From contig JAZDKC010000033.1 in the NCBI GenBank assembly GCA_043803465.1, forward strand, positions 18,085-50,084: a stretch of DNA of 32,000 nucleotides. The letters run 5' to 3'. Position 1 is the stretch's first letter. Each line of letters begins with the position of its first letter. The translations under genes were made by a program, and so were the position numbers. The DNA is from Candidatus Micrarchaeota archaeon (lineage in GTDB: Archaea > Micrarchaeota > Micrarchaeia > Norongarragalinales > SBBD01). The notes below the pieces were generated by a model. That model was not told the origin of the DNA. It was given only the letters and a program-made list of their open reading frames with translations, and did no database searches. Shown here in pieces: positions 2,360 to 32,000 of this stretch.

Positions 2360-2419
2360 ATAATATAGGTAGTTACTTAAAAATATATTAGTTGTTTTCT
2401 GGGCAGTTTGGCGGATACG

Positions 2420-5739: not shown

Positions 5740-5781
5740 AATCGGAATGTTCAGGAATGTGGGGTTACTGGGCGATTAAAT

Positions 5782-6162: not shown

Positions 6163-6318
6163 TTTTGAATATCCGCGCAATTCTTTCCATGCCCACGGAA
6201 TACCTTCACTTGGAGGGGGACTGGATTTAATAGGTATTGTTGCTAATAATGGCGTTGTTCGCTGAATAAATGACGGGAAATGCGATAAAAAAACCGGACA
6301 AATTTCAAAGGGGGGAAA

Positions 6319-7282: not shown

Positions 7283-8359
7283 ATGGAGGCTGGGGGAACC
7301 GAGATTTACCTGCAGTTCACGCGATCGTTCAATCTATACCTGGCAGAGTTCTGGCGCTCGCCCCTTATTACCCCCAATGTGAAAAAATTCATGGGAGTCG
7401 GTTTGTCGGACCATATCTGCTATTATGACGGGGATACGCAATATTATTACCGGATTAAACCGGAGATGCAGGCGTTGAAAGGGCATGTGCTCTCCTTGAA
7501 GCCCGGCGATCGGAGGTATTCTGAAGGTGCAAGCAGGCTTTTCAGGGAGAAGGTAAAACGCATGCGTATCCTGATGGAACGCAATATTCCCGACAAGAAT
7601 ATCCCCCGGGTCTACAGGGAAGCAAAGAAATTGTTTGAAGAACTGTATCCATTCTATTATTTCGGCTATTTCATGGGCGGGCCCTGGAAGGCGGAGTATG
7701 GGGCAATTTGGGGCAAAAGGGCTGAAAAAACCCTGAAATTGCAATACGGCAACCGGGTTTACTCCGAAGGGCTGCTGAAGCAATTTTCAAATTTCATCGA
7801 GAATCTTTGCATGCAGAAAATTGGCGATTTATCCGCCGAACTGGACATCTCCTTATTGAAATTCCGGGAAGTGGAGGCTCTGCTGTTGAAGGATGAAGTG
7901 CCGAATATCAAGCATGTGAAGCGCAGGGAAAATGGGTATGTCCTGGTCAGGGGGAAAGTTATTGAAACGGATGATTTCCTTGCCACAATCAACCGGTTCG
8001 GATATCATTATCGGCCCAAGGAGATCGAGGAAACAATGAACCTGGAGGGCGAAATAGCCTACCTGGCGAAACCCGTCGTAGGAAAGGCGCGGGTCATCCT
8101 GAACGACAACGACCTGAAAAAATTCATGAAGGGCGAGGTGATGGTTGCGCCGATGACCCAGCCGATGTACCTCCCGCAAATGAAATTGGCGAAAGCGATC
8201 GTGACCGATGAGGGTGAAATCACCTGCCATGCCGCGATCGCATCCCGGAAGCTACGGATCCCGTGCGTGATCGGGACGAATTCCGCCAGCCAGCTGCTGA
8301 GGGACGGAGATCTAGTGGAAGTGGATGCGAAGAAGGGCTTGGTGAAAAAAATCAGCTGA
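7283..8359 (+). CDS. PEP-utilizing enzyme mobile (swivel phosphohistidine) domain protein
   Basis: The C-terminal 90 aa match the PEP-utilizers mobile domain (GEVMVAPMTQPMYLPQMKLAKAIVTDEGEITCHAAIASRKLRIPCVIGT...GDLVEVDAKKG), with the phospho-His in TCHAAIASR. The N-terminal 260 aa are not recognisable as an ATP-grasp or PEP-binding domain. GAGGGGG SD before the ATG. Confidence 0.75.
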   Translation: MEAGGTEIYLQFTRSFNLYLAEFWRSPLITPNVKKFMGVGLSDHICYYDGDTQYYYRIKPEMQALKGHVLSLKPGDRRYSEGASRLFREKVKRMRILMERNIPDKNIPRVYREAKKLFEELYPFYYFGYFMGGPWKAEYGAIWGKRAEKTLKLQYGNRVYSEGLLKQFSNFIENLCMQKIGDLSAELDISLLKFREVEALLLKDEVPNIKHVKRRENGYVLVRGKVIETDDFLATINRFGYHYRPKEIEETMNLEGEIAYLAKPVVGKARVILNDNDLKKFMKGEVMVAPMTQPMYLPQMKLAKAIVTDEGEITCHAAIASRKLRIPCVIGTNSASQLLRDGDLVEVDAKKGLVKKIS

Positions 8360-11400: not shown

Positions 11401-12228
11401 ATCAAATAGCGCGCCTTCCTTTGGGGGATTCTTGATCAGTTCCTCATAATCCGCAAGGAGGGTGGATGATGTTTGCGGGAAAAGGCCCAAAATCGCGTGT
11501 TTCCTGATTTTTATATTCGTGGATTTGATGCGGTTGGATTTTGGCTCATACTGCATTACCGCCTCCTCAAGCGCATCCTTATTTTCGAACTTCATCCCGA
11601 GCTCTTCGCATTTTGCAATTGAGCTGAATAAATAGCCATCCTTGCCCTCATCAATCTCAAAATCATAATTTGGATCAAATTTGACGCGGTTGAATTTCTG
11701 GTATGCGATGATGAATGTCTTGTTCAGGATGGGCTCGCGCTCCTCGTCTGGTATCGCAGTAAATTCCAATTTTTTGTAATCCTTCTTGATCAGTACTGGA
11801 AACAGCACCAGGGGGCATTTGTAATGCGTGCCATCCCCGAATTCTCCTTCAACAAAGGGGTATCCGATGTAAACATCATAATTTCCCGTTTCCTTTTCTA
11901 TGAAATCCGCCTCCCGCTGCAGATGCGAGAGCCTGTAGGATGCGGTCATGTCGTCCTCATTTGGCGTTATCACCCTTACCAGGCGCAGGGGTTTTCGGGC
12001 AACAATTTTATCCGTGAGCCTTTGCGCCTCTGCCTTGCTCTCATTGAACAATTCGTAAAGGTCGAAGTGCAGCCGCATGCTCAGGCGTGAAAGGTGCAGG
12101 GAGCGGTTTGTCTTGCTCACATCGGTGAGCTGGTCGCGCAATACCTCGAGCACTTTGGGCACGGATACCTTCTGGTTGGCCGAGGGGTCCGACAATGCGC
12201 CCATTAGTTTGGTGTATTCGCTATCCAT
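8431..12228 (-). CDS. large SF1 (Upf1/DNA2-like, AAA_11/AAA_12) helicase with a DUF4011-like N-terminus and a C-terminal Vsr/DUF559-like (PD-(D/E)xK) endonuclease domain
   Basis: Walker A GPPGTGKSQ; Walker B/motif II VIFDEASQC; VAGDEKQLPP; NWHYRSKREELIAFSNFAFYSGK; VQGDERDMIIFS; RLNVAVSRAREKIVVVSS. C-terminus YALDLAILDKEDPHRYALGIEIDKFNY...RGWKVFRVGSRDWW resembles DUF559/REase_MTES_1575. A helical insertion of about 430 aa lies between Walker A and B. Confidence 0.9.
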   Translation of the reverse strand: MDSEYTKLMGALSDPSANQKVSVPKVLEVLRDQLTDVSKTNRSLHLSRLSMRLHFDLYELFNESKAEAQRLTDKIVARKPLRLVRVITPNEDDMTASYRLSHLQREADFIEKETGNYDVYIGYPFVEGEFGDGTHYKCPLVLFPVLIKKDYKKLEFTAIPDEEREPILNKTFIIAYQKFNRVKFDPNYDFEIDEGKDGYLFSSIAKCEELGMKFENKDALEEAVMQYEPKSNRIKSTNIKIRKHAILGLFPQTSSTLLADYEELIKNPPKEGALFDFFNGEASDKAEWLRPEDHGKKAFFVTDVDGSQERALLSLEKLGGIAVHGPPGTGKSQLIVNIIADSVAKGKKVLLVCEKRAALDVVYHRLAAIGLGDMVALVHDYNKDRSHIFMKASKDIDDFNSMEELPEVSVDDKGTRSEEILLQILEYHLGVNKRLKCGSTLRQLYLLDKDALLRTEELDALEEKFSFQEFSDAMERISDILPLLRKDGNGAFKSLQNGALSSLSEEKMRQAEIHLRELLRLIESLSEIFNSNEWHALSLKSQGYSYPKSLELEHQIRKHPDNSKSFLKFANGEWRKTNRFLESVRIANKESKLPAEYLIRELAGENIRFTSKSLKSIEKMSEYNKLMGIIEKEAKELAGILDHDVSSELVSFASEGSEDAAHLLIQLQDSLRNKQKGAVYQRMVDDLNDNERKLLSIAAQTLSREKNVPQTIAIIRHSFYSKWIGDAESALPVLKKLDGATYGRYRAEVRSLLEKRKLKSRQETKRRWHEFLSSQRYSNLKEIKFQSEKTKHPWSLRKMLREFSEKGMMDVFPVWLCSPETVSAIFPLEKGMFDAVIFDEASQCTLEHAIPALYRSKSVCVAGDEKQLPPFDLFSSHLDAQDSEEEDDSLSTSELKEISGIKSFLQLAKRRYPELLLNWHYRSKREELIAFSNFAFYSGKIQTTTTPDLHRKSPAIDYVKVHGLWEKRKNRLEAEKVVELIATTIVKPHPPSIGVVTFNSAQRDLIENLLEKKALSDYKFYQHYKRELERVENEELQSLFVKNIENVQGDERDMIIFSIGYAPSIEDGKVLTQFGTLSMEGGEHRLNVAVSRAREKIVVVSSIDPLQLRITEESNIGGKYLRKYLEYAKAVSENNTGEINGILKSLGGGPAYEKAPSMQAAQISEIANELFEQLSKIGLTVRREVGYSNYALDLAILDKEDPHRYALGIEIDKFNYSGLLDAKERDVYRQNLLESRGWKVFRVGSRDWWSDSEGIIRQIRQELKN

Positions 12229-12431
12229 GAACTGCCCACTTTGACAAAATGGGCGTTAAAGGAATATAAATGGTTCGTTTAAATCAGGAAAAAATAATTA
12301 CGGATTTAAGCGAGCGTTAGAAGGGTTTGCGAAAGGCCGCACGGTCACCAACTTCGGGAAGTCATCTGCTAGAAACAGATTGCGATAGCCTTAAATAGGG
12401 GGCAAAATTAACCCTTTAAAGGTGATGGTCA

Positions 12432-12845
12432 ATGGGATCTCCGGATTTCTTGGTTCCTTGGGTGTTGTTGGGAATATGGTTCGCGCTATTCAACTGGCTC
12501 GGAACAGGCACAATGCTCGAGAAATGGGGTAAAAAGAAGGGTTTTGACAAGCTGATAAAGAAAGAAAGCAGCAAACTATTCATGCTTCAGGCGCTCAACG
12601 CGTTCGTGGAGGCATTCTTCATTTACCTGATCTTCATCATGACCGCGATGGTTGGCTTGTATAACAGCTACTCATTCTGGCTGTTCTATGCGCTCCTCGG
12701 AGTGGTGGTGCAGATTCCGGTGAGGGTGGGAATGGCCTTGACAATGAACCTGCCTGAAAGGTTCCTCCTAGGGGACATGGTCGGGGGGATCTTCAAGTAC
12801 GTCGTTGGCGGCTGGATACTGCTGCAATTCCCGGTCGCATTCTGA
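12432..12845 (+). CDS. small integral membrane protein, hypothetical (4 predicted TM)
   Basis: AGGTGAT SD 6 nt upstream of the ATG. Hydrophobic segments are present throughout. No family recognised. Confidence 0.5.
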   Translation: MGSPDFLVPWVLLGIWFALFNWLGTGTMLEKWGKKKGFDKLIKKESSKLFMLQALNAFVEAFFIYLIFIMTAMVGLYNSYSFWLFYALLGVVVQIPVRVGMALTMNLPERFLLGDMVGGIFKYVVGGWILLQFPVAF

Positions 12846-12871
12846 TTTCTTTTTTTCCTTTTTATTTTTTT
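12846..12871 (+). terminator. oligo-T tract (archaeal-type terminator)
   Basis: tttctttttttcctttttattttttt begins immediately after the TGA at 12843-12845. Confidence 0.45.
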
Positions 12872-12925
12872 ACGCCTAAATGGCATCAGATTGTTTAATA
12901 TATTTCCCCAATCACAAATTAGAGT

Positions 12926-13450
12926 ATGATGGATTATTCCCGGCTAAATATGCGGAGGAGTAGCGGTGCAACACGCTTTTGGCAGAGGCATCCCCTGCTG
13001 AAAAGGGCCATTGTAATAACAACAATCCTGTCCGTTCTCCCGGGATTGAACTTCCGCTGGAAAAATGGCGGCGCAGCGATCAATGCATCCCATCCGATCG
13101 ATTCGGGAAGGCGCTTTTCAATAACGCTTTCGAAGGATTTCCTTAGGCGGATCGATTCCCTCGGCACGAGGTATGGCATTTCGAGGGAGGCCGCCACCTA
13201 CGCCCTCTCATTGCCTCCCGATTCAATACCGAAGTTCAGGGAGGAGATTACGCCCCGAAGGAATGCCCATTCGGGCCAGCATTACCACTATAATGACACA
13301 AATTGGATCGTTCAGCCCCGAAATAGCTGCGATATGGCCGGAGTATTGCTTATGCTCGAGGATCTGGAAAAGCCCCACGGCGTAGAAGTGGATTTCCTAA
13401 AAGGGGCCATAAGGACTTTGGCAAAGGAACGCAGATCAGAGGAGCGCTAG
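12926..13450 (+). CDS. hypothetical protein with a possible ribbon-helix-helix-like segment
   Basis: The segment RRFSITLSKDFLRRIDSLGTRYGISREAA resembles a CopG/RHH strand-helix-helix. The rest is unassigned. The 3' end overlaps convergent alaS by 4 nt. Confidence 0.4.
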   Translation: MMDYSRLNMRRSSGATRFWQRHPLLKRAIVITTILSVLPGLNFRWKNGGAAINASHPIDSGRRFSITLSKDFLRRIDSLGTRYGISREAATYALSLPPDSIPKFREEITPRRNAHSGQHYHYNDTNWIVQPRNSCDMAGVLLMLEDLEKPHGVEVDFLKGAIRTLAKERRSEER

Positions 13451-16107
13451 AGGATTTTGCCCCTTGCAAAGCTCTTGTTGCCGCCGCCTTTCGCATTCTT
13501 CTTCTTCAACAGCTCCAACGCGTTCTCACAGCTCTTCTCGTTTACTGCAGAAACAACAAAACCGCCGTTGTTGACCAAAATGGCGGCCATTCCATCACTT
13601 CCGGCAATTTCAAGCGCGAGTTTTTCCAACAGCGGCGGGGAAAGCGACACCTTTGCATCCACAAGCTTCTTGCCATTCGCTTTCGCTTCATTAACCAGCT
13701 TATGGGAGAGTGCATCGGCAACATCCTCGTGCGCCTGCTCCAATTTCTTTCCGCGCTCCTTCCATTCCTCGAAGAAGCGTTTGACAGTTGCGGGAAGTTG
13801 TTCCTCCTGCACCCGAAGCTCATCACTTGCCTGCCTTAGTATCTCCTCCCTTTGCTGTATCCATTTTATCGCTTGCAGGCCTGCATTGTACCTGATGCGC
13901 ACTACGCCGTCCTGGATCTGCTCGCAGCCAACAATCTTGATGATTCCGACCTGCCCGCTATTATCGCAATGCAAGCCTCCGCATGCTTCCACATCAACGC
14001 CCTCATACTCTACAACCCGGAGTATGTTCCCAATTGCACCGCCTCCTTGGTATAGGCGGAAACCAAACTTCTTCTCAGCTGCACCCCTGTCCATGAAGTT
14101 GATGATTACGCGAACATTATCGAGGACATGATTGTTCGCGATTTTTTCAATCTGGTTCAGCTGCCCTATTGAGGGCTTTTCATAATGCGTGATATCCAGG
14201 TGTGCCCCCTCCTCCTCCTTCTTTGCGCCCGCCTGCCAGATGTGCTTGCCTAGCACTTCCCTGCAGCCCGCTATCATGATGTGAGTGGAAGAATGATGCC
14301 TCCGCAATGCCATGCGCCTTTCCGGATCAACCTTTACCTCGCATTGATCGCCCACTTTAAGTTTGGAAGGATCGCTTACGGTATGCAAAACAATGTCATC
14401 CATCTTTTGCGCATCAATAACTTTTGCTTGGCCGATGGATCCTAAGTCCGCAGCCTGGCCGCCGCCTTCGGGATAAATGATAGTGCGGTCAAGCACCACT
14501 TTGTTGCCAAAAATTGCCAAAACCTTGGATTTGTCGGTTAATTTATTTGCATCGTCGTAGTATGCAAGTTTCGTCTTGGGCAGTTTGGCGAATTTGGGAT
14601 CGTCGAGGAGCGGCTCCTTTTTCGCTTTCTCCACCATGATGTGCCTTTCCGTGATCTTTCGGTAATAATCAGCAGGAATTTTGGCCTCGATTTTCATTTC
14701 TGCTGCGACTTTTTCCAGGATTTCCGGGGTGACGCCATGCGATTCATACAATAGCCGGAGTTTGTCCGCATTCATTTCGCCTTTCTTTATGATTTCCGAC
14801 GCCATCCCGGATGCCTTCCCCTTGGTTTCGTTGTATTTTTGCCTCTCGATTCCAAGTATTTTCTGGATGCCCGCAAGGTTTTCGGAAAGTTCGGGGAATA
14901 GCGGCCTATACCCCTTTGCCTGAAGGTTCATTATATCGAAAATGTCGAACCCGAAGTTATATTCGTCCATGAAGCCAAAAGCCCTGCGCAAAAGGATCCG
15001 CAGATTGTACCCGCCGGCGGAATTGGACGGAAGTGCGCCATCCGAAAGCGCGAACAGCATGGTCCTTGAGTGATCCGCTATGGCATATATTGCCTGAAGG
15101 GGAGAGATGCTCTTTTCCAGCTCTTGAAGGCTTATGCCCAGGCTCTTTGCAATATTTTCCTTCTCCTCCCTGAGGTTGTGCACCTCCTCGATGTTCAATT
15201 TGGATGCAAGCCGCGCATACCTCCCAAACAGGTTGGAATCGATTTCGAAGTCCGCTTTTTTCCTCATGAACGAGATCTCTTCCGGAAATACGGAATCGAA
15301 TGCAGTCGGTGTGCGGTTGTAGAACCATTGCAGGCGCTCCAAACCCCAGCCCACATCGATCACGCGCGTATTCAGCTCCTCGAATTTGCCATTTTCAGTT
15401 GCCCTGAACTGCATGAAGACGCTGTTTACCAGCTCCAGGCCCCCGGAAAAGCTCTCGATAGAGGGGCCGAAGGCGGAGAAGTCGGGCATGTGCCACAGGT
15501 CCTCCCCGTAGGAAATCTCATTTTTTGGGATGCCCATTACCTGCGTCAATAATTTATAATTCAAATCAATGCATTCGTCCTTCCAATATCCTCCGCTTTT
15601 CCCCTTTTCCTTGAATGCATGCTGCCCCGCCATCGTGAAGCAGCTCAGGTGCCTTCCGGTTATGCCTACATTCGCAATGTCGACGAAACGAAGGCAGGGC
15701 TGCGGAACCATCAGGGGATTTGCGGGGTATTCGAAGACGACCTTCCCCTTCTCCAAACGCTGGAAATCCACAATGCTGGCAATGGTGAAATATAGGTCAT
15801 CCCTCCACCGGCTAATCACGGGGTACCTGGCCAAAATTTCATGGCCGTTCTTCTTCCAGAAATCAGAAAATTTCTTCCAGAATTGAATGTAATTGAGATG
15901 CTCGGAGGCAGGTTTGGGCTTGTTGAAGAAGGTGTAATCATTATGGGCGGAGTCGCCGCAATTGCCGGTTTCAGCTGCAGACCAGAACGCCTTCCCGCAG
16001 TATCTGCACTTCCTGCGCGAGAACCCCTCCTTCCTGAAAAGATCCACTTCGTAGTATTTCTTATAGTCCTGCTCGAATTCCCTGACCAGGTTCTCTTTCG
16101 AAAGCAT
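13447..16107 (-). CDS. alaS: alanine--tRNA ligase (archaeal type)
   Basis: Archaeal AlaRS N-terminus (RRKCRYCGKAFWS). Class II core. Editing domain HxxxH (HHSSTH) and CxxxH (CGGLHC) motifs. C-terminal DHHA1-like tail. ATG at 16107 (MLSKENL...) is preferred over the track's TTG at 16128. Confidence 0.95.
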   Translation of the reverse strand: MLSKENLVREFEQDYKKYYEVDLFRKEGFSRRKCRYCGKAFWSAAETGNCGDSAHNDYTFFNKPKPASEHLNYIQFWKKFSDFWKKNGHEILARYPVISRWRDDLYFTIASIVDFQRLEKGKVVFEYPANPLMVPQPCLRFVDIANVGITGRHLSCFTMAGQHAFKEKGKSGGYWKDECIDLNYKLLTQVMGIPKNEISYGEDLWHMPDFSAFGPSIESFSGGLELVNSVFMQFRATENGKFEELNTRVIDVGWGLERLQWFYNRTPTAFDSVFPEEISFMRKKADFEIDSNLFGRYARLASKLNIEEVHNLREEKENIAKSLGISLQELEKSISPLQAIYAIADHSRTMLFALSDGALPSNSAGGYNLRILLRRAFGFMDEYNFGFDIFDIMNLQAKGYRPLFPELSENLAGIQKILGIERQKYNETKGKASGMASEIIKKGEMNADKLRLLYESHGVTPEILEKVAAEMKIEAKIPADYYRKITERHIMVEKAKKEPLLDDPKFAKLPKTKLAYYDDANKLTDKSKVLAIFGNKVVLDRTIIYPEGGGQAADLGSIGQAKVIDAQKMDDIVLHTVSDPSKLKVGDQCEVKVDPERRMALRRHHSSTHIMIAGCREVLGKHIWQAGAKKEEEGAHLDITHYEKPSIGQLNQIEKIANNHVLDNVRVIINFMDRGAAEKKFGFRLYQGGGAIGNILRVVEYEGVDVEACGGLHCDNSGQVGIIKIVGCEQIQDGVVRIRYNAGLQAIKWIQQREEILRQASDELRVQEEQLPATVKRFFEEWKERGKKLEQAHEDVADALSHKLVNEAKANGKKLVDAKVSLSPPLLEKLALEIAGSDGMAAILVNNGGFVVSAVNEKSCENALELLKKKNAKGGGNKSFARGKIL

Positions 16108-16175: not shown

Positions 16176-17882
16176 ATGCCCGGCTCCAAGTACCCATATA
16201 TGCCGAAGAACGAGCTTGACCGCGAAATCTCAAAAGCCAGGGGCCTTTATTTAAATAACCTGAAACTTTCTCAGGGGAAATCCGTTAAGGCCCTTTTCGA
16301 TAGAATCGAGACCGGCACCAGAATGATGCACCAATACGGTATTGCGGACCGTGATGCCCTTCATTCCATGCTGTACCGGGCTTTGCCATCTAGAATCGTA
16401 AAGACCCTGCCCCTCGAGGCGCCTGCGGTAGATTTGATCAATAATTATTCTGCCTGGGTCACACGACCCCATGTAAAACGCGAGGTTGGAAATATTGAGG
16501 ACTATATTGAAAGCGTTCGGAATAGCCATTTGGGTATCCTATCCCTGAGGATGTTCGATAGATTCGCCAAATTGGACCAGATACGCAGGAATTCGTCAAA
16601 ACCGATACACACGCTTCCAGAGGCAGCGAACATAGGGAAGGAAATATTGAACACTCATTCGCTAATAGCTCGTTTTCTGGGTTATGAAAACCTCCGGGAG
16701 GATATGACAAACCTCGCTTTGGAAGCGACCGCACCCAAATTATTATCCGGAATCAACAATATTGTCGACAATGAGTTCAAGAAAAACAAGGACGGGGTAA
16801 ACGCCACATTCGCCATATTGCATAAGTTCGATCCATCCGGGAGCTTGGCATCATCGTTCATCAGGAAAAAAAGTGCGGCAAGCGTATTGGAAAAGTTGGT
16901 AAGGAGGCTGACGGAAAAAATTTCCGAATTGGACAAGAAAGCCAATGAACTCGAAGAAGAGAGAAAAATAGGCACTCGCCCGAAACAGCAAATAGCGAAT
17001 AATCTAAGGGACGTTAGAAACTTAAAACGGAAACTTGAGGAAAGGAGGCGTAGCATCCCATCCTTGCGAAGCCTTCCGGAATGGGCCGAAAAAATGATCC
17101 GGGATCCCGAATCCTTTTTTGATCTCGTGGCTATACGGTTTGTTTTAAATTCAAAAAAGAATGATGATTGTTTCAAATTAGCAGACGTAATAAAGGACAA
17201 CTTAGGGGAAAAGAACGTTAGAATCCAACACGACTATATAAGCAACCCCAAACCCAACAACTATCAGTCGCTCCATTTGAAGGTAAAATTGCCGGGGGGT
17301 GCCGTGGAATTCCAAATTAGGACTTTCGATATGGATCGCAGGGCAAGTGAGGGCTCCGAACAGATGCATGCGATATATAAAAGCAAATCGAAAAATTTGC
17401 CGCCTTCATTGATTGCTTCGTTGCTGTTTTTAAGGAAGGCGCTTAAGGAACGCAAGCCCCTCGATCACGCAGCCCAATTCTACTATGAATCCGAACTTGG
17501 GGTTCATGATGCGAACATAGGCAGGAAGTTGTACATTCCTGAGGGCGCCACCTATGCGGATTATCTTGTCAAACACCATTTGCTCCCCAATGTGAAAAGG
17601 ATCAGAACGGTCTCCGTTCAGAGAATTGGACCGGCGGATAGGTCGGAGGAGCTAGTAGTTCCCATTTACAGCAGGGTGCAAGATGGCGACATACTCCTTG
17701 GACCCCGTGAAATCGGGTATACGGACAAACCTGAAATCAGATTATTGGCATTTTCAAGTCTTCCGAGCACACATGCGGCGATAACAGAGGCCCATCCCCA
17801 CTTGAACAAATTTGAACTTAGGACCATACTATACGAATACCGGCGGAAATTCAAAAGAACACATGCGGATTTTCCACTTTGA
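16176..17882 (+). CDS. RelA/SpoT-homologue (RSH) nucleotidyltransferase: alarmone-synthetase fold with a TGS-like C-terminal domain and an unassigned N-terminal domain
   Basis: RxKxxxSxxxK (R230-K240: RKKSAASVLEK). D..AIR (FFDLVAIRFVL, D316). HDYISNPKPNNYQSLHLKV. EFQIRTFDMDRRASEGSEQMHAIYKS. Then LYIPEGATYADYLVKHH...VQDGDILL resembling a TGS domain. No HD hydrolase doublet was seen in residues 1-225. Confidence 0.8.
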   Translation: MPGSKYPYMPKNELDREISKARGLYLNNLKLSQGKSVKALFDRIETGTRMMHQYGIADRDALHSMLYRALPSRIVKTLPLEAPAVDLINNYSAWVTRPHVKREVGNIEDYIESVRNSHLGILSLRMFDRFAKLDQIRRNSSKPIHTLPEAANIGKEILNTHSLIARFLGYENLREDMTNLALEATAPKLLSGINNIVDNEFKKNKDGVNATFAILHKFDPSGSLASSFIRKKSAASVLEKLVRRLTEKISELDKKANELEEERKIGTRPKQQIANNLRDVRNLKRKLEERRRSIPSLRSLPEWAEKMIRDPESFFDLVAIRFVLNSKKNDDCFKLADVIKDNLGEKNVRIQHDYISNPKPNNYQSLHLKVKLPGGAVEFQIRTFDMDRRASEGSEQMHAIYKSKSKNLPPSLIASLLFLRKALKERKPLDHAAQFYYESELGVHDANIGRKLYIPEGATYADYLVKHHLLPNVKRIRTVSVQRIGPADRSEELVVPIYSRVQDGDILLGPREIGYTDKPEIRLLAFSSLPSTHAAITEAHPHLNKFELRTILYEYRRKFKRTHADFPL

Positions 17883-17891
17883 AAATTATTT

Positions 17892-18024
17892 CGTTTGCCT
17901 CTACCCCCCTATTCCGAATCAGATCTTGAAAACATAATCTACAACACCTATATGGGGGCACATCCCCCCTACTCGTGTTGCCTCTACCCCCCTATTCCGA
18001 ATCAGATTTTGAACACGTAGTCCA
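17892..18024 (-). repeat. direct duplication (period 83 bp) of the GGR gene 3' end plus its 3' flank
   Basis: 17896-17924 equals 17979-18007 exactly (29 nt: last codon, TGA and 23 nt of flank). The preceding codons differ only at third positions: copy in gene GAC TAC GTG TTC AAA ATC TGA, downstream copy GAT TAT GTT TTC AAG ATC TGA. Both read DYVFKI*. Confidence 0.9.
17943..17993 (-). repeat. two-tier hairpin element plus C-rich tail, copy 1 (homologous to 28675-28724)
   Basis: The plus strand reads aacac-cta-ta(t)ggggg-cacatc-ccccc-ta-ctc-gtgtt, then gcctctacccccct. It aligns at about 80% identity with the hydrogenase-locus element. Confidence 0.8.
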
Positions 18025-19177
18025 TATCCCCGTATTTTTCAAGTAATTTGCCCATTCCGATCCGACGGCCGACCCCGACCCCCAGTTCTGAGAGCCAATT
18101 CGGCATCAGGCGGTAAAGCCGGTGGAGCAGGTAATGCAATTTGAGGGTTTCGCCGTGCTGGAGCTGCCATGCTGATTCATAATCGAGTTCCTTCCCTTCA
18201 ATTAAATATTCGGCTGTCCCCTTGGCAGCCACTTTTGCGCATTTGGCGCCGAAATTCACCCCCCCTCCGCTCGTTGCCTTCACCTGTCCGGCTGCATCCC
18301 CAACGAGGAGAGCATAGGAGTTGCCGAATCGCTTCTGGGTGTGCTTCCGATACCTCAAGGGAATCATGTGATGAAACTCAAATGTTTTATGGCTGCCTTT
18401 AATGATATTAGCTAGGTAAGGGTTCTCGAGTGCGGCCCTTTTGGCATTTTCAATTTTATTGATTTCCGTGGTTGCAACACCGATCCGGATCCTCTCGTCC
18501 GAAATGGGAATCGTCCAAGCAAAAAAATTCCGGTAATGCGACTGGTCCAGGATCAGGTCTACAATATCCTTTTCGGGCACATCCGCCTTCGAATATTCGG
18601 CCTGGTAGCAAATTACGCAATCAGACAGCTTGATGGGGGGGAATCCGAGCTTTCTGGCCGTGAGGGAGGCGTTCCCGTCGCAGCCTATGATGACGTTTGA
18701 TGAAAAAGCGCCGTCATCGGTTGTTTGCACGTTGATTTTCTGGTTTACTTCGAACCCCCTGACGCGGGTGTTCAAATGCAGGTTTGCGCCCGCAGCAACA
18801 GCCTCATCCGCAGCCCTTTCATCAAAGGATTGGCGCGGAAGCACAACCGCTTGGACCGCGGATGATTTGACCTTCAATTCCTCCTTGCCTGCAATGATCC
18901 GGGCACCCCTGATCTCATTCAAAATCAGGTCCGCATAATTGACTCCGGTAAAATCCATCCCGTGCTTGGAAAATATGCCCCCGCACTTGCCGAACTTGCC
19001 TACCCTTGAATCCTCTTCCAGCAGGTCGACCTCTATCCCCCTCTTGACCAGCTCTTTAGCTGTAATCGAGCCTACTGCGCTTGCGCCTATTACGATTGCA
19101 TGTTTTTCCATCAAAATACCCAAATTGCGCGTTATATTGTGTTTGAGCCCCCGTTGCCCCGCTTTTAATACTGCCAC
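18002..19177 (-). CDS. geranylgeranyl reductase family FAD-dependent oxidoreductase (digeranylgeranylglycerophospholipid reductase-like)
   Basis: N-terminal dinucleotide fold HAIVIGASAVGSITAKELVKRGIEVDLLEE. GCDG. The GGR-typical LVGDAAGQVKATSGGGV. The real start is probably the ATG at 19111 (MEKHAIVIG...); the track start at 19177 is a GTG. Confidence 0.85.
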   Translation of the reverse strand: MAVLKAGQRGLKHNITRNLGILMEKHAIVIGASAVGSITAKELVKRGIEVDLLEEDSRVGKFGKCGGIFSKHGMDFTGVNYADLILNEIRGARIIAGKEELKVKSSAVQAVVLPRQSFDERAADEAVAAGANLHLNTRVRGFEVNQKINVQTTDDGAFSSNVIIGCDGNASLTARKLGFPPIKLSDCVICYQAEYSKADVPEKDIVDLILDQSHYRNFFAWTIPISDERIRIGVATTEINKIENAKRAALENPYLANIIKGSHKTFEFHHMIPLRYRKHTQKRFGNSYALLVGDAAGQVKATSGGGVNFGAKCAKVAAKGTAEYLIEGKELDYESAWQLQHGETLKLHYLLHRLYRLMPNWLSELGVGVGRRIGMGKLLEKYGDMDYVFKI

Positions 19178-25916: not shown

Positions 25917-25988
25917 TTAGCAGCAGCCGCAGCATCCGGAGTGCTTTTTGCCTTTCTTTCCCTTCTTCGCAACAGCTTTTTTCTTCAT
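25917..25988 (-). CDS. small ORF (23 aa) MKKKAVAKKGKKGKKHSGCCGCC: Lys-rich with a C-terminal CCGCC cluster
   Basis: Not in the track, which has a length cut-off. GAGGTG (26000-25995) lies exactly 6 nt before the ATG (25988-25986). TAA at 25919-25917. A T-rich run follows on the minus strand. The upstream duplicated gene end shows the ORF once sat 18 nt after the FNR-like gene stop. Confidence 0.45.
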   Translation of the reverse strand: MKKKAVAKKGKKGKKHSGCCGCC

Positions 25989-26001
25989 ATTTTTCACCTC
26001 T

Positions 26002-26138
26002 TTTATTCGCCACGGCTCAATATGCATCATTTCCGGCTTGAAACCTTACGTCTGCGACGGGGGATAAACCCCCTCGACCAGACTGGTCGTCCCCTTTATT
26101 CACCACGGCTCAATATGCATCATTTCCGGCTTGAAACC
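26002..26138 (-). repeat. direct duplication (period 93 bp) of the FNR-like gene 3' end, with hairpin-containing spacer
   Basis: 26010-26045 equals 26103-26138 exactly (36 nt). The stop TGA (26100-26102, plus-strand tca) is CGA in the downstream copy (26007-26009, plus-strand tcg). The spacer 26046-26094 carries GGGGG-ataaa-CCCCC (26059-26073) and the palindrome cgaccag-a-ctggtcg (26075-26089). Confidence 0.9.
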
Positions 26139-26846
26139 AACCTGCGGCAGGATGGTTTTCACATCCTCAACCATCTTAGGGTTTCCGCAGATGAAAACAT
26201 CCGTTTCTTCCGGATGCTCGAATGGGTAGGCCGGGAAGAAATCATGGAAAATCGCGACCCTGCTGTTCCAATCTTCCCTTCCGGCATCCGTTATTGTGGG
26301 CTCGAGCTTGAAATTGGGGTATTTTTTTGCGAGTTCCTCCAGTTCATCCTTGAAAATGTACACGTCCGGGTTCTTGAAGCCGAAGAAAAGGGAAATGGGG
26401 ATTATCGAACCATCGTTGAGCAATGCGCGAATATGGCTGATCAGGGGTGCGACGCCCGTGCCCGTGCAAACAAACATCAGCCTCTTTGGGTTGGGAATCA
26501 TGGTAAACACGCCAAAAGGTCCCCGAATATTGATTATTGAGCCCACATTGCAGCAATCCTTCAAATGGTGCGTGAATCCGGGCGTGTCTAGGAGGCGGAT
26601 GGAAAATTCCAAATACCCTGCTTGAAACGGTGCCGAAGCGATCGAATAAGAGGACCATTTCAGGAGATCGGGGTTGCCCCTCAGGGGAAAATCATCCATT
26701 GAGAGCTGGCAGAACTGGCCTGCCTTGTACTGGAAATCGATGCCTTTGGGGATCTTGAGCTTGTAGATGCGGGAGTGCGGTTCCGGGGAGACGCGCTTGT
26801 CGACGTAATCCCGCATCTCGAGCACTTCGGCCTTGAATTCCAGCAT
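26100..26846 (-). CDS. FNR-like FAD/NAD(P)-binding oxidoreductase (ferredoxin-NADP reductase / hydrogenase gamma-subunit-like, no Fe-S cysteine motif)
   Basis: FAD-binding YKAGQFCQL...SYSIASAP. NAD(P) motif MFVCTGTGVAPLISHI. C-terminus ICGNPKMVEDV. ATG at 26846 is preferred over the track's TTG at 26873. Confidence 0.85.
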   Translation of the reverse strand: MLEFKAEVLEMRDYVDKRVSPEPHSRIYKLKIPKGIDFQYKAGQFCQLSMDDFPLRGNPDLLKWSSYSIASAPFQAGYLEFSIRLLDTPGFTHHLKDCCNVGSIINIRGPFGVFTMIPNPKRLMFVCTGTGVAPLISHIRALLNDGSIIPISLFFGFKNPDVYIFKDELEELAKKYPNFKLEPTITDAGREDWNSRVAIFHDFFPAYPFEHPEETDVFICGNPKMVEDVKTILPQVGFKPEMMHIEPW

Positions 26847-26930
26847 AATAAAATCGGATGTATTACCCTGCAACCATTTAAAAAAATGACGTTGAGAAGG
26901 ATAGTAAAGGCAAAATGCAATTGATGCATC

Positions 26931-27317
26931 ATGATGATGAATAAAATATTAGTATTCGGCAATCCCCTGGTCCCTGAAGACAGCACACCAATCAAAATTC
27001 TTCCTAAGCTGCAAAAGGCGTTCCCGGGCATCGAGTTCAAAGAGCTCGATGCAGCAGAACAGGTGGAAGATGAGGGGAAAAACCTGGTAATAATTGATTC
27101 TGTTTCTGGCATAAATAAAATAGAAGTGATTGAAGACCTGAATTCCATCCAGCTCCAAAAAATATACTCGATGCACGATTTTGATTTGGGGATTACATTG
27201 AAGCTGCTAAAGAAGATGGGCAGGATTGATTCGGTAATGATTTTCGGCGTTCCGCTGAAGTATCCGGAAAGGGAAGCGTATAGGGAATTATGCGAAAAAA
27301 TCAGAAAGCTTTCTTAA
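26931..27317 (+). CDS. [NiFe]-hydrogenase maturation endopeptidase (HycI/HybD family)
   Basis: ILVFGNPLVPEDS, LVIIDSV and SMHDFDL give the Asp/Asp/His metal-ligand pattern. The length (128 aa) is typical of hydrogenase C-terminal processing proteases. Confidence 0.8.
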   Translation: MMMNKILVFGNPLVPEDSTPIKILPKLQKAFPGIEFKELDAAEQVEDEGKNLVIIDSVSGINKIEVIEDLNSIQLQKIYSMHDFDLGITLKLLKKMGRIDSVMIFGVPLKYPEREAYRELCEKIRKLS

Positions 27318-27326
27318 ACCTCGGGT

Positions 27327-28604
27327 TTACTTCCACTTGACTTTCAAGAAATGCGTCGCGCAGCTCATGCAGGGGTCGTATGCGCGGATCAGCTTCTCGA
27401 TCTCGAATTCGAGCTCCTCCTTTGGCTTGTGGAGGTTCTCCTCCACCAGCTTCTTGATGTCGAAGCCCATGTTCACCTGGTTCTGCGCAGTCGGAATTAC
27501 GAGCTCGACCTCCTTGATCTTGCCGTATTCATCCACCTCGACGTGATAAAACAGGGTGCCGCGGGGCGCTTCAATGGCAGCAACTCCGATGCCCTGCTGC
27601 GGCTTCACTTGCACTGGCGTTTCTTGTTTGAAATCCGTTGTCTCAAGCAACTCGACTGCATGGTCAATACTATGCAATGTTTCAATTGTCTGAGCGAGAT
27701 TGTTCTTGTAAATATCGTTCGTAGGGAAAACGGAAATGAAACTTGAGGCATCCCTTTTCGTATCCTTGTGGAGCGCATCCTTTTTGAGGTTCATCCGTGG
27801 AAGCGAGCCCACCATGTATTCCTTCCCCCTGAACTGGAATCCAACGGAAGTGGAGTACGGAATCACAACCCTCTGCAAATGCCATAAATAATGCGATTTG
27901 GACACCGGAATGCCCTCGGAGTTGATTATCTCGTCGCCCAAATAGCTGAAATCCTTGTTACCGGAGCAAACATACCTCGTATCCCGCTTGAATGTGAAGT
28001 CGCAATCCTTGTAGATTTGCATCAAATCAAAAAGCGGCTCCCTTGCTGCCTTTAATTCGGCAATAACTTGTTTTGTTTTTTCCTTGCCTGGAATTTGCGC
28101 GTGCCCGCCAACAATTGGAAAGGTCGCATGAATTGATTTTCCCGCAACAAGCTTGCTCAAATTGTTGCCAGCCGCCTTAACCTGGAATGCCTGGTCCACC
28201 AGCTCATGATGGTCGTCAACGAATTCAAGAATTGAGTCCTTCCGAAACACATCCGGAAGCGAAAAAAGGTACAGGTGCATGGCATGATCCCGGACATACA
28301 TGCCGTGCGCAGTAAGCTTCCGGAGGATGCGGGTTTGATCCGAAACCTCCACCTTCAATGCGTTTTCAACAGCCTCTGTGCAGCAAAGGAGGTGGGCGAT
28401 GCTGCAAGTGCCGCAAATGCGCGAGACTATCTGGGGGACATTCAATGCGGGCTTGCCCCGGACAGCCTGTGCGTAAAAACGTTTTTGCTCGGTGATTTTG
28501 AGTTCGACATCCTGGACTTCATCGCCCCTGACCTTCAGGCTTAGGGACGCATGGCCCTCTATTTTGCTTATTGCCTCCAAATCAATGTCGAAGTCTTGAT
28601 GCAT
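27327..28604 (-). CDS. [NiFe]-hydrogenase large (catalytic) subunit, group 3-like
   Basis: N-terminal KIEGH and RICGTCSIAH (RxCGxCxxxH). C-terminal DPCMSCATH followed by a short cleavable tail FLKVKWK. ATG at 28604 (MHQDFDIDLEAISKIEGH). The track's 25-codon N-terminal extension runs through the duplicated region and is probably not translated. Confidence 0.92.
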   Translation of the reverse strand: MHQDFDIDLEAISKIEGHASLSLKVRGDEVQDVELKITEQKRFYAQAVRGKPALNVPQIVSRICGTCSIAHLLCCTEAVENALKVEVSDQTRILRKLTAHGMYVRDHAMHLYLFSLPDVFRKDSILEFVDDHHELVDQAFQVKAAGNNLSKLVAGKSIHATFPIVGGHAQIPGKEKTKQVIAELKAAREPLFDLMQIYKDCDFTFKRDTRYVCSGNKDFSYLGDEIINSEGIPVSKSHYLWHLQRVVIPYSTSVGFQFRGKEYMVGSLPRMNLKKDALHKDTKRDASSFISVFPTNDIYKNNLAQTIETLHSIDHAVELLETTDFKQETPVQVKPQQGIGVAAIEAPRGTLFYHVEVDEYGKIKEVELVIPTAQNQVNMGFDIKKLVEENLHKPKEELEFEIEKLIRAYDPCMSCATHFLKVKWK

Positions 28605-28608
28605 GGAA

Positions 28609-28737
28609 TCACGCTTGCGGTTTAACCCCAAACTCCGCCAAATATTTGTCGAGTACTTGTAAAAATTTCGCCTTGACACCTCTAGGGAGGATATCCTCCC
28701 TACGCGTGTCGCCCCTACCCTCCTTAATTTGATTCAT
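28609..28737 (-). CDS. 42-codon ORF created by the duplication: MNQIKEGRGDTRREDILPRGVKAKFLQVLDKYLAEFGVKPQA (new gene or pseudogene remnant of the small-subunit C-terminus)
   Basis: The ATG overlaps the small-subunit TAA as TAATG (28739-28735). The frame is open to the TGA at 28611-28609, which sits 4 nt before the large-subunit ATG. The last 20 codons re-encode the small-subunit tail. Confidence 0.3.
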   Translation of the reverse strand: MNQIKEGRGDTRREDILPRGVKAKFLQVLDKYLAEFGVKPQA

Positions 28738-28792
28738 TATTTCACACCGAATTCCACCAAATACTTGTCGAGTACTTGTAAAAATTTCGCCT
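28621..28792 (-). repeat. direct duplication (period 119 bp) of the hydrogenase small-subunit 3' end
   Basis: 28646-28673 equals 28765-28792 exactly (28 nt) and similarity continues to the stop. The 17 shared codons show 5 synonymous third-position differences and 1 replacement (V to A). Confidence 0.9.
28675..28724 (-). repeat. two-tier hairpin element plus C-rich tail, copy 2 (homologous to 17943-17993)
   Basis: gacac-ctc-tagggaggat|atcctcccta-cgc-gtgtc. This is a perfect 20-bp palindrome (28683-28702) inside 5-bp outer arms with a 3x3 internal loop, followed by gcccctaccctcct. Confidence 0.85.
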
Positions 28793-29216
28793 CATCCAGG
28801 GGGCAGCCCGGAACCATGTCCTCAACAGTTATTATTTGCGGAATTGAAAGCACTTTATCAAGCTGGTGGAATTTATCCACTAAAAATTGGATTTCCTTCC
28901 TGGTTTCCTCGTTGAAGAAGTTTCGCTGCCCTGCGGGAAGGCCAGTGCATGCGCAGCTTCCTATTGCCACCACTTTTTTTGAATTCGCCCGTATTTCAAG
29001 GACCTTCTGCCTGTCCTTTTCCGATGAGACCGCACCCTCTATGAACGCGACATCGATGTCCTTCAATTCGTTCTTCGTCTTCAGGATCCTTGCGTACTTG
29101 AAATCGATCTGCTGCACCCATTCCTTGTAGTGGTCATTCATCATCTCAACAAAAATTATGGAGGAATCCTCGCAGCAGCTGAACGAGAAAAGGCCTACCT
29201 TCAATTTATTCCCCAT
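28737..29216 (-). CDS. [NiFe]-hydrogenase small subunit (short, NuoB-like, proximal [4Fe-4S] only)
   Basis: The four cluster cysteines sit in the NuoB/HoxY pattern: FSCCEDS, GSCACTG and VPGCPL. The protein is 159 aa. Confidence 0.85.
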   Translation of the reverse strand: MGNKLKVGLFSFSCCEDSSIIFVEMMNDHYKEWVQQIDFKYARILKTKNELKDIDVAFIEGAVSSEKDRQKVLEIRANSKKVVAIGSCACTGLPAGQRNFFNEETRKEIQFLVDKFHQLDKVLSIPQIITVEDMVPGCPLDEAKFLQVLDKYLVEFGVK

Positions 29217-29333
29217 ATCCTAGATCACTGATTTGAGACGCGAAAAACGCAAAACTCACAACGTATAAAGCCGCAGACTTTTTTAACCTTCTTGAATTAA
29301 CCATCACGTGGGTTGGAAGCACCGGTGATTTGG

Positions 29334-30272
29334 ATGGATGAGGGGAAGGGCATTTTATTCGCATTTATCGCCGCGGTCGTCAGCGGCATTTCCGTGTTCG
29401 TCAACGGTTTTGCGGTGAAGGGATTCGAGCCCATTGCGTTTGCCGCATTGAAGGGCGCGGCAGTTGCAATAATGCTTATTGCCGCCATCTTCATGTTCAA
29501 GGAAAGGGAAAAATTGCTTAAATTGCCACCTTCACAATGGGGATGGCTGGCGTTGATCGGCATAGTCGGCGGAAGTGTGCCGTTTGTCCTATTTTTCCAG
29601 GGTTTGAGCATGATACCTGCAATAAAAGGCTCGTTCCTATTCAGGCTTCTATTCATATTTTCAGCGATATTCGCAATGCTGATTTTGAAGGAAAGGCTTT
29701 CAAAAAAGGCCGCATTAGGCGCAGGAATTGCCCTATTTGGGAATGCATTGCTTTTAGGGAATGAAAATATCCTTTCTTTCGGGGCGGGAGAGGCATTGGT
29801 CTTGGCAGCAACTGCAATTTGGGGTTTTGAGTACGTGCTCTCAAAATGGGTCATCAACTCCAGGCACATCGAACCTAGATTAGTAGGATTTGGAAGGATG
29901 TTCTTTGGAATGCTGGCGATTTTCGCATATTTGGCAGCAATTGGAAAACTTTCCACTATTTCCACGCTTTCCTTTGTTCATTGGGAATGGGTTGCCATCA
30001 CATCCATTTTCCTATTCTTTTTCGTTTCAAGCTGGTATGTTTCATTGAAATACGCAAAAGCTACTGTTGCTACGGCCATCCTGACCCTCGGCGGGCCCAT
30101 ATCTGCAGCACTCAATTACTTTTTCCTGGGGAAGGCGCCGACAATAATGGATGGGGCGGGGCTTTTGCTGATCACATTGGGCATTTTTGCCATTGTGGGC
30201 TACGGGCAGATGGCCAGGCTGCCGGAAAGCGCGATTAATGAGCTCAGGAAGTTGAATGCATGGAAGGCGTAG
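29334..30272 (+). CDS. EamA/DMT-family transporter
   Basis: Ten hydrophobic helices in two EamA-like halves (e.g. FRLLFIFSAIFAMLILKERLSKKAALGAGIALFGNALLL). ATG at 29334 is preferred over the track's TTG at 29313. Confidence 0.8.
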   Translation: MDEGKGILFAFIAAVVSGISVFVNGFAVKGFEPIAFAALKGAAVAIMLIAAIFMFKEREKLLKLPPSQWGWLALIGIVGGSVPFVLFFQGLSMIPAIKGSFLFRLLFIFSAIFAMLILKERLSKKAALGAGIALFGNALLLGNENILSFGAGEALVLAATAIWGFEYVLSKWVINSRHIEPRLVGFGRMFFGMLAIFAYLAAIGKLSTISTLSFVHWEWVAITSIFLFFFVSSWYVSLKYAKATVATAILTLGGPISAALNYFFLGKAPTIMDGAGLLLITLGIFAIVGYGQMARLPESAINELRKLNAWKA

Positions 30273-31103: not shown

Positions 31104-32000
31104 CTACGGCCCCTTCCTTTTCTTCCGCTTGCCTTTCATGAACTTTGCGTATGCTACGTAGCCCACGACTATGAGCACGGCGACGAGCAATATCCAGAAC
31201 GTGTTATCCAATTTGGATGCACGCATCCTGCTCCTGACCTTCACAAGCAGCTCGTTCGTCCTTGCCCTCGCATCCTCAATGACCGATCTTGCATTGCTAT
31301 CCTGCTCCTTTTCCAATAGGTCGATTGACTGCTCGACCATATTCTCGATTTCTGTTGTGTCCTCTCCGGACTGCTTGATCTCGTCGATTTGCGGCTCTAT
31401 CTCGTTCACCACGGAAAGCACCGCAAAACCTATTGGGCCAAGCGAGCCTCTCTTCAATTTCCTCAGGGTCTTGAACTGATATTGCGCTGAGGTAGTGCAT
31501 AGGCCGTTCGCGCAACTCTTCACGTAATACTGATAAACTGTATTTGGAAGGAGCGAACTAAGCGATAATCCGTGTGAAAGCTGAAGTGAGGCATCGTATT
31601 TTTCGAGAGTCATCGTTGTTTTCCCATATTTTGCGTAGGAATCGGAAGGTATGTCGGCGATCCAGGTGATTACTGCCGATGTCTGCGTTATGCTCGTTGC
31701 TTTCACCTGGGTGATTATCGGCGCGTTGTAAGCGGGGCCGACGGAAGCGGATGGAGATGGAATAATTGTCGATGTGGGAGTGAGGGTGTAAGTAATCGTA
31801 ACCGTCGGGGTCGAGGTAATTGTGGGGGTCGGAGTCGGCGTCTGGGTGGGTGTTGCGGAAGGCGTCGGAGTCGGCGTCTGGGTGGGTGTTGCGGAAGGCG
31901 TCGGAGTCGGTGTAGGCGTCGGCGTAAGGGTTATTGTGGGGCTGGGCGTAGGCGTGATCGTAGCAGTAGGGCTCGGCGAAGGCCAGGGGGTCGGCGAAAC
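31104..32000 (-). CDS. surface protein, partial (5' end beyond window): Pro/Thr-rich linker, FN3-like domain, coiled segment, C-terminal TM anchor
   Basis: The frame stays open upstream of the track's GTG (31706) to the window edge, reading ...TPTPTPSATPTQTPTPTPSATPTQTPTPTPTITSTPTVTI.... The FN3-like block is ITQTSAVITWIADIPSDSYAKYGKT...LSSLLPNTVYQYYVKS. The C-terminal anchor is FWILLVAVLIVVGYVAYA plus KFMKGKRKKRKGP. Confidence 0.7.
   Translation of the reverse strand, partial: VSPTPWPSPSPTATITPTPSPTITLTPTPTPTPTPSATPTQTPTPTPSATPTQTPTPTPTITSTPTVTITYTLTPTSTIIPSPSASVGPAYNAPIITQVKATSITQTSAVITWIADIPSDSYAKYGKTTMTLEKYDASLQLSHGLSLSSLLPNTVYQYYVKSCANGLCTTSAQYQFKTLRKLKRGSLGPIGFAVLSVVNEIEPQIDEIKQSGEDTTEIENMVEQSIDLLEKEQDSNARSVIEDARARTNELLVKVRSRMRASKLDNTFWILLVAVLIVVGYVAYAKFMKGKRKKRKGP
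31831..31910 (-). repeat. 36-bp in-frame tandem repeat (2.2 copies) encoding TPTPTPSATPTQ
   Basis: ggagtcggcgtctgggtgggtgttgcggaaggcgtc at 31831-31866 is repeated exactly at 31867-31902, with a partial third copy at 31903-31910. Confidence 0.85.

Follow-up and report, generated by a model that had tools for sequence, protein, structure and literature searches.

Small hairpin elements between duplicated gene ends in a Micrarchaeota lineage

Comparable systems

The genes for the small and large subunits of a [NiFe]-hydrogenase in a Candidatus Micrarchaeota archaeon (assembly GCA_043803465.1, contig JAZDKC010000033.1) are separated by a 119-bp unit in which a stable hairpin lies between two copies of the 3′ end of the small subunit gene. 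The unit was examined within a stretch of 32,000 nucleotides, here called the window, whose numbering is used for all coordinates except those given for loci of relatives (L001 and so on). The event resembles the repeats of the miniature inverted-repeat transposable element (MITE) and repetitive extragenic palindrome (REP) type, the long duplications of IS1634 and C-terminal displacement. No described equivalent was found in the literature for Micrarchaeota or archaea, and the hairpin element between copies of a gene end seems to represent a type of small mobile element not described before.

In the REP/BIME type of small palindromic repeat (BIME, bacterial interspersed mosaic element), REPs have a 5′ GTAG and are associated with a REP-associated tyrosine (RAYT) transposase. 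REPs and most MITEs leave either no target duplication or one of 2-10 bp and are present in tens to hundreds of copies. The sequences described here share with them the form of short GC-rich non-coding hairpins placed after stop codons, with GTAG 5′ of the stem, a variable interior and conserved ends. They differ in the long duplications and in there being only four copies, and no RAYT or Y1 transposase was seen.

Long and variable direct repeats, of 8-514 bp, are produced by IS1634/IS1549, a family reported preferentially among Euryarchaeota (PMC2266710). The repeats described here, 27-55 nt and variable from copy to copy, likewise exceed the usual 2-14 bp. However, IS1634 elements are autonomous, 1.5-2 kb long and possess a DDE transposase and terminal inverted repeats, whereas the inserts described here are non-coding, 36-255 nt long and have asymmetric ends with a G-box on one side. 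No DDE transposase of the IS1634 family was found in the window or the sampled loci.

Prophage e14 and phage 21 replace the tail of icd. In the C-terminal displacement of rhs genes a new 3′ end is acquired and the old one survives downstream (PMC2935791). As in these systems, the new 3′ end takes over at the hydrogenase junction, the old tail downstream opens with a short homology and the two tails differ as alleles do. The rhs and icd systems involve kilobase cassettes, or prophages with integrases, and supply a new protein tip, whereas the unit described here measures 76-294 nt, leaves the protein tail essentially as it was and affects housekeeping genes. Bypassing between matching take-off and landing codons is known for the GC clusters (‘byps’) of yeast mitochondria and the coding gap of T4 gene 60. 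There too small GC hairpins are tolerated in or beside coding sequence, near a stop codon, but the gene described here is complete without bypassing and there is no sign of hopping.

The hydrogenase junction

A preliminary description of the junction had reported a 119-bp duplication, a hairpin and a 42-codon open reading frame (ORF) coupled to the small subunit gene by TAATG, and every factual statement in it was confirmed. The features, all on the minus strand, are as follows.

28737-29216 (-): [NiFe]-hydrogenase small subunit gene, 159 aa; Pfam Oxidored_q6, E=3.9e-18; homologues 56-84% identical
28740-28792 (-): tail copy A, in the gene, from repeat scan and codon comparison
28734-28739 (-): tandem in-frame stops TAA-TGA; the TAA ends the small subunit ORF and the e1/e2 alignment begins at the TGA
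28674-28736 (-): element e1, with 5′ extension TGAATCAAATTA, G-box AAGGAGGGTAGGGGC (about 28711-28725) and stem-closed hairpin
28675-28710 (-): 36-nt hairpin, GACAC-GCG-TAGGGAGG-ATAT-CCTCCCTA-GAG-GTGTC
28609-28737 (-): ORF42, 42 codons (MNQIKEGRGDTRREDILPRGVKAKFLQVLDKYLAEFGVKPQA); its ATG overlaps the small subunit TAA (TAATG) and its stop lies 4 nt before the large subunit ATG
28621-28673 (-): tail copy B, displaced and probably ancestral, directly adjoining the hairpin
28602-28620 (-): native small/large junction, CCG CAA GCG TGA TTCC ATG, with a GTGAT Shine-Dalgarno-like motif overlapping the stop
27327-28604 (-): [NiFe]-hydrogenase large subunit gene, 425 aa, MHQDFDIDLEAISKIEGH...; Pfam NiFeSe_Hases; 88% identical to the L001 orthologue

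Copies A and B are 53 nt long, identical at 47 of 53 positions and spaced 119 nt start to start; a comparable repeat was absent from shuffled windows. The small subunit ORF ends GCG AAA TTT TTA CAA GTA CTC GAC AAG TAT TTG GTG GAA TTC GGT GTG AAA TAA, closing as ...VEFGVK-TAA three codons short of the displaced tail. Copy B ends AAA TAT TTG GCG GAG TTT GGG GTT AAA CCG CAA GCG TGA TTCC ATG, reading ...AEFGVKPQA-TGA(28611-28609)-TTCC-ATG into the large subunit, whose ATG is at 28604-28602 and whose 425-aa length matches that of its orthologues. A 450-aa GTG-initiated ORF (27327-28679, minus strand) extends the large subunit through copy B and is an artefact of the duplication. The 17 codons shared by the two copies show five synonymous third-position differences and one replacement (V/A), in exact agreement with the preliminary count. 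The differences are not spread over the repeat. The first 28 nt of copy A (28792-28765) are identical to copy B and all six differences fall in the last 25 nt (28764-28740). Copy B agrees with the closest relative at four of the six variable sites.

The insert between the copies is 66 nt long (28739-28674) and comprises the TAA, the in-frame TGA, the box AAGGAGGGTAGGGGCGA and the 36-nt hairpin, which reads in full GACACGCGTAGGGAGGATATCCTCCCTAGAGGTGTC. In the hairpin a 3x3 internal loop separates stems of 5 and 8 bp, the latter closed by a 4-nt loop. It had been called very stable and is so: its folding energy within 61 nt of context is -23.4 kcal/mol (z = -3.8), and none of 200 shuffles was equally stable. 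The 12-mer AATCAAATTAAG at the 5′ edge of e1 (28725-28736) is also found in L001, the closest relative, where it lies in the spacer that follows the gamma gene (about 7835-7846; L008 covers this same region), and the similar AATAAATTATAGAGGA is the native Carb_kinase tail in locus L013. The recurrence of the 12-mer could be due to chance in AT-rich sequence (about 0.1 expected by our own estimate) or be a flanking trace carried by the element.

Exact-protein look-ups gave no record for either ORF42 or the small subunit, and the ORF42 peptide has no recorded homologue. When the insert was shuffled, 4% of trials gave an ORF that shared the frame of copy B and had its ATG no more than 12 nt from the small subunit stop. 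ORF42 is probably a by-product, perhaps one kept open as a translational relay.

The hydrogenase belongs to a group 3-like operon in which Oxidored_q6 is followed by NiFeSe_Hases, with a maturation protease and an FAD/NAD gamma subunit close by, and synteny is kept in L001, L002 and L004. The closest small subunits are from Candidatus Micrarchaeota metagenome-assembled genomes, the best being 84% identical. Four orthologous loci (L001, L002, L004 and L005), with the gene order EamA, DUF6390, small, large, protease (opposite strand) and gamma, have a single tail and a small-to-large spacer of 12-63 nt from which the insert is absent. It is also absent at the gamma tail of L001 and L002 and at the FAD tail of L012. 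The GTGAT motif is found about 5 nt before the ATG in copy B and in L001, L004 and L005, with GTGGT in L002. The orthologous small subunits run 0-9 residues beyond EFGV, some as ...IPKA, near the ...KPQA of copy B. Given that the placement of the motif and the C-terminal extensions agree, copy B carries the native junction, as had been proposed. Since the orthologous C-termini vary by 0-9 residues, the three-codon shortening of the small subunit is within natural variation. In a test for phylogenetic discontinuity across the junction, L001 was the nearest relative on both sides.

Recurrence, a repeat family and divergence of the copies

The duplication had been described at the hydrogenase junction alone. 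It is real, though not singular, being one of six events of which three are in the window and three in relatives. A window-wide repeat scan revealed two further gene-tail duplications around a G/C hairpin, giving three events in 32 kb, and all three inserts fold at about -23 kcal/mol.

17895-18031 (-): second event, 3′ end of an FAD-dependent oxidoreductase gene, from repeat scan, folding, e1/e2 alignment and covariance model
26002-26138 (-): third event, 3′ end of the hydrogenase gamma (FAD/NAD-binding) gene, from repeat scan and folding

The oxidoreductase gene (18002-19111, minus strand) shows copies of DYVFKI-TGA-TTCGGAAT-AGGGGGGTAGAGGCAA around a 38-nt hairpin; its orthologues end ...GDMDYVFKI/L. 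Copy 1 of the tail, with stop, spacer and G-box, occupies about 18022-17978 and is followed by the hairpin of element e2 at about 17977-17940, by copy 2 at 17939-17895 and then by a second G-box. At the gamma gene (26100-26873, minus strand) two 44-nt copies (26138-26095 and 26045-26002), identical at 43 of 44 positions, flank a 49-nt insert with a G5/C5 hairpin (26094-26046). Their single difference changes TGA to CGA in the stop codon of copy 2, so that the displaced tail is joined in frame to the conserved small-peptide gene that follows.

That peptide gene lies right after gamma (25917-25988, minus strand) and encodes a lysine-rich 23-aa peptide ending CCGCC (MKKKAVAKKGKKGKKHSGCCGCC); equivalent small ORFs, ending ...GCCGCC, follow the gamma gene in L001 and L002. 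The product may be a hydrogenase-linked metal-binding peptide. An antisense ORF of 199 aa (25941-26540, plus strand) spans the gamma-tail duplication and has YSPRLNMHHFRLET twice in its peptide.

A RelA/SpoT-like gene is found in the window at 16176-17882 (plus strand), in L008 at 11237-12724, in L012 at 1592-3103 and in L014 at 11245-12987. Its neighbours are the genes for the FAD oxidoreductase and AlaRS. In the window and in L014-L017 it lies on the strand opposite to theirs and in L008, L012 and L013 it is co-directional with them, and therefore a single-gene inversion has occurred within the clade. One breakpoint of this inversion in the window falls in the e2 tail-duplication region (17883-18001).

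The orthologous regions of relatives were fetched and yielded the other three events. GCA_041305345.1 (L008) has a tail-hairpin-tail arrangement at the same FAD gene, identical in an independent Logan assembly (L009). In GCA_964357685.1 and two ENA replicate assemblies (L010, L011 and L012) the head of the FAD gene is duplicated, its first 53 nt being present twice around a 112-nt multi-hairpin insert. A 54-aa upstream ORF runs through this insert in L010 and stops at a TGA 3 nt before the real ATG; an upstream ORF open through the 112 nt and stopping no more than 12 nt from the real start was obtained in 4% of shuffled trials. L012 has 10 N (a scaffold gap, 322-331) within the insert where L010 and L011 are contiguous, and evidently the hairpin inserts break short-read assemblies. 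The third event is in GCA_053535475.1 (L013), where the Carb_kinase tail is duplicated 294 nt apart around a structured insert of roughly 255 nt. The repeats of the six events are 53, about 45, 44, 27, about 39 and 53 nt long. No further events were found in more distant relatives (L018, 20 kb; L014-L017).

The 66-nt insert is no anonymous filler, being a copy of a structured repeat family. Elements e1 and e2 (17940-18004), of 62 and 63 nt, are about 77% identical (47 of 61 aligned positions) in an alignment over 62 nt that starts at the TGA and was equalled by none of 2000 shuffles (p<0.0005). A covariance model built from the two recovers both, at 90 and 88 bits, and gives candidates in L013. 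In members of the family the G-box, AGGRGGGWAGRGGC, is on the 5′ side, and a 5-bp stem closes the hairpin domain that comes after it. The G-box pattern GGRGGGWAGRGGCRAC has an exact match at 6687 in L013, right after the Carb_kinase stop codon, where about 0.001 matches would be expected (our own estimate from the information content of the pattern). A fourth copy, of 88 nt, lies between genes in L013 (14628-14715). Over the four copies, the only ones in about 180 kb of clade DNA, the closing stem co-varies (GACAC/GTGTC, AACAC/GTGTT and, twice, GACCC/GGGTC); G-box and stem are common to all while the interior ranges from 0 to about 200 nt. Both L013 copies end in the same GGGTCATT, the duplicated and the non-duplicated alike, and thus the 3′ end of the element is a defined terminus. 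Long duplications flank e1, e2 and the L013 copy at 6686. The family thus has, in the manner of MITEs, homologous copies at unrelated loci and is present or absent at orthologous sites. No Rfam match was obtained at E<=1 for 27000-30000 of the window or 6000-15500 of L013, and two G-box patterns had no match in viral contigs.

The preliminary view that the tails differ as coding sequences do, and not as decaying ones, holds statistically across the six events. Between the copies 23 codons differ and 17 of the 23 changes are synonymous or stop-preserving, whereas random placement in 1e5 simulations averaged 4.5 and never exceeded 14 (P<1e-5). Both L013 copies still encode NKL-stop although none of the last three codons, nor the stop, is the same in the two. 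A block of perfect identity abuts the insert at the hydrogenase junction (28 nt), in L013 (29 nt), at the FAD tail (30 nt) and in L010 (29 nt), and one of 36 nt does so at the gamma gene, where the copies are near-identical throughout. In the mosaic events the differences are confined to the part of the repeat distal to the insert, with near-saturated synonymous divergence there. At the hydrogenase junction and in L013 the identity block lies at the left of copy 2; at the FAD gene and in L010 it lies at the right of copy 1. In-place decay of a non-coding duplicate cannot give this pattern, but it can arise between alleles whose divergence took place in separate lineages while they were functional genes. 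Translation of both copies, which had been offered as one cause of the synonymous pattern, is not needed, and a recombination mosaic with an identity block explains the pattern better.

Two other apparent similarities were not significant. A duplication reaching into the hairpin (EDMVP versus EDILP in a protein alignment) was not significant in any of the three window events, and neither was the similarity between tails of different genes (p=0.14).

Origin of the duplicated gene ends

Small hairpin elements between duplicated gene ends are a recurrent, lineage-specific process. We propose, with moderate confidence, that a small mobile element, structured and non-coding, left the 119-bp unit as its footprint: it made a long target duplication on insertion, and one flank was later changed by recombination. 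A non-autonomous element of about 63 nt would have inserted at the extreme 3′ end of the small subunit gene and duplicated the last 53 nt of its target. The upstream copy, with the TAA/TGA at the element edge, would reseal the small subunit ORF, while the large subunit would keep its native Shine-Dalgarno motif and stop-start junction on the downstream copy. Both genes could thus outlive an insertion into a 4-nt spacer because each copy keeps the end or start context of one of them. With a Shine-Dalgarno motif inside the upstream gene, only an insertion duplicating tens of bases would leave both genes working, and this would account for finding such events at the ends and starts of genes. Identical copies would be the young state, as is nearly still the case at the gamma gene. 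Later, or while the element was spreading between lineages, homologous recombination with a diverged, element-free lineage would have swapped one flank. The exchange would be blocked by the heterologous insert and end about 30 nt away from it, and stopping there would leave an identity block next to the insert and an allele-like block beyond. ORF42 may stay open because a ribosome reading through the hairpin and terminating 4 nt before the large subunit ATG would preserve translational coupling. The ORFs running through the inserts here and in L010, and the opened stop at the gamma gene, suggest that insertions in operons may be tolerated when ribosomes cross the hairpin and stop beside the next start.

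Several observations weigh against this proposal. No transposase, integrase or reverse transcriptase domain was found in the ORFs of the window or the sampled loci, and the element ends offer only the 5-bp closing stem, with no clear terminal inverted repeats. The duplicated segment at the FAD gene includes the element's own G-box, which simple target duplication does not predict. The L013 copy at 14628-14715 has no long flanking duplication, only a possible 8/9-nt match seen by eye. The inserts at the gamma gene and in L008 and L010 are not demonstrably homologous to e1 and e2, the G5/C5 hairpin being the only common feature; in the insert comparisons e1 versus e4 was weakly significant (p=0.004) and the other pairs were not. 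The 20-nt core of the hairpin found only two unrelated terminator-like palindromes in genome, metagenome and viral collections, and the protein database holds no strain-level relative of the small subunit (best 84%). Recombination between alleles so diverged at synonymous sites should also be rare.

Given the lack of a transposase and of real terminal inverted repeats, the G-box within the FAD duplication and the unduplicated L013 copy, substantial weight must be given to an origin without transposition, which is possible and distinctly less probable. Tail and element would have been imported together from a diverged lineage, as a fragment or small circle, and would have displaced the resident tail either by homologous recombination within the 28-nt identical block (Campbell-type) or by one-sided homology and an illegitimate join. 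Import accounts for the allele-like differences between the tails and the sharp boundary between the identical and recoded blocks, and it predicts a crossover inside the perfectly matching 28-36 nt. The intergenic family member shows that duplication is not obligatory, and a crossover inside tail plus G-box would carry part of the element into the repeat unit as is seen at the FAD gene. Prophage e14 at icd offers a parallel, and for rhs genes tail displacement has been documented (PMC2935791). On the other hand, circles or fragments of just 76-294 nt would be required, the origin of the first duplication at a new gene is left unexplained and the gamma gene has near-identical copies. Furthermore, the nucleotide-precise 3′ end GGGTCATT in both L013 copies indicates a defined mobile terminus and not the random end of a fragment. 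A doubtful extension of the idea is that this Micrarchaeota clade of DPANN archaea carries a class of tiny structured, transposase-free elements (about 60-250 nt) not described before, which sit at gene termini joined to a gene end. They would integrate and excise by host recombination with the gene end as a homology arm, and would pass between diverged lineages by homing on orthologous genes, swapping tails as they do so.

It is unlikely that the structure is maintained by selection, with the hairpin setting the small:large ratio through mRNA processing, stability or attenuation and with ORF42 as a relay that unwinds the hairpin and delivers ribosomes to the large subunit start; the insertion origin proposed above would still hold in that case. 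In favour of such selection, ORF42 starts on the small subunit stop and ends 4 nt before the large subunit ATG, the L010 upstream ORF is open through its 112-nt insert and stops 3 nt before the start, each has a chance probability of about 4%, and the sole change in the gamma duplicate opens a stop in frame with the downstream small-peptide gene. However, these are two or three cases only, the hydrogenase case was chosen for its ORF, ORF42 is without a recorded homologue and beyond the FAD and Carb_kinase tails the neighbouring gene is convergent, which makes a relay unnecessary there.

An artefact of assembly, scaffolding or polishing that joined two strain haplotypes at the hairpin is very unlikely. 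Such a join could give allele-like copies, no independent assembly of the exact contig is on record, and the N-gap inside the L012 insert shows that these regions are hard to assemble. Nevertheless, the unique 66-nt insert has the repeat on both sides, and therefore any molecule carrying the insert must carry the repeat twice. There is no N in the window, the same structures are present in independent assemblies (NCBI and Logan for L008/L009; NCBI and ENA replicates for L010/L011) and the variable block, about 24% diverged, is too divergent for co-assembled strains. Least probable of all is the view that replication slipped at a hairpin already in place, giving a local tandem duplication, and that the two copies then diverged where they stood. 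Hairpins do stall replication and the gamma copies are near-identical. However, there is one hairpin and not two, the repeat does not reach into it, and homologues of the insert are found 10 kb away and in another genome. Divergence in place also predicts roughly 40% synonymous-type changes (our own estimate) and changes scattered across the non-coding copy, where 17 of 23 and identity blocks are observed.

Other kinds of element were considered and rejected. A prophage remnant of the e14/icd att type does not fit inserts that are non-coding, 36-255 nt long and without an integrase or element genes. The attC site of integrons has the consensus RYYYAAC ... GTTRRRY (R″/R′ core sites), and the feet of the hairpins (GACAC/GTGTC, AACAC/GTGTT and GACCC/GGGTC) do not follow it. 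For a bulge-helix-bulge intron there were only chance-level, G-U-rich candidates and two events had none. A diversity-generating retroelement would need mismatches limited to adenines of one copy and a reverse transcriptase nearby, but only two of the six differences involve A and no reverse transcriptase was found in the window or the sampled loci. An intrinsic terminator was rejected as no T-run follows the hairpin and there is no terminator-like site.

If the proposal is true, it shows how insertions at gene junctions are survivable even where a genome is so compact that spacers measure 4 nt and the Shine-Dalgarno motif of one gene is placed within the gene before it: with a long target duplication neither the end of the first gene nor the start context of the second is lost. 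A new small repeat family is defined in Micrarchaeota. Recombination between diverged lineages is written into the duplicated tails, which record it as a perfect block near the insert and allele-like sequence beyond. For annotation, the events give rise to spurious ORFs (ORF42, the 54-aa upstream ORF and the 450-aa extended large subunit) and are open to being mistaken for misassemblies. The hairpin of -23 kcal/mol between the two structural genes could shift the ratio of their expression.

Three further features of the region were recorded. The closest relative (L008) has an extra gene between the hydrogenase large subunit and the maturation protease (5682-6428, plus strand), encoding 248 aa without a Pfam match and absent from the window and L002. 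A 1265-aa protein encoded at 8431-12228 (minus strand) of the window has DUF4011, AAA_11/AAA_12 helicase and MTES_1575 restriction-endonuclease-like domains; it is syntenic in GCA_041305345.1 and may be a defence or repair nuclease-helicase. Finally, a short ORF at 31820-31915 (plus strand) has SESASGWVLRKA twice, in tandem, in its translation, a sign of tandemly repeated DNA close to the window's right edge.

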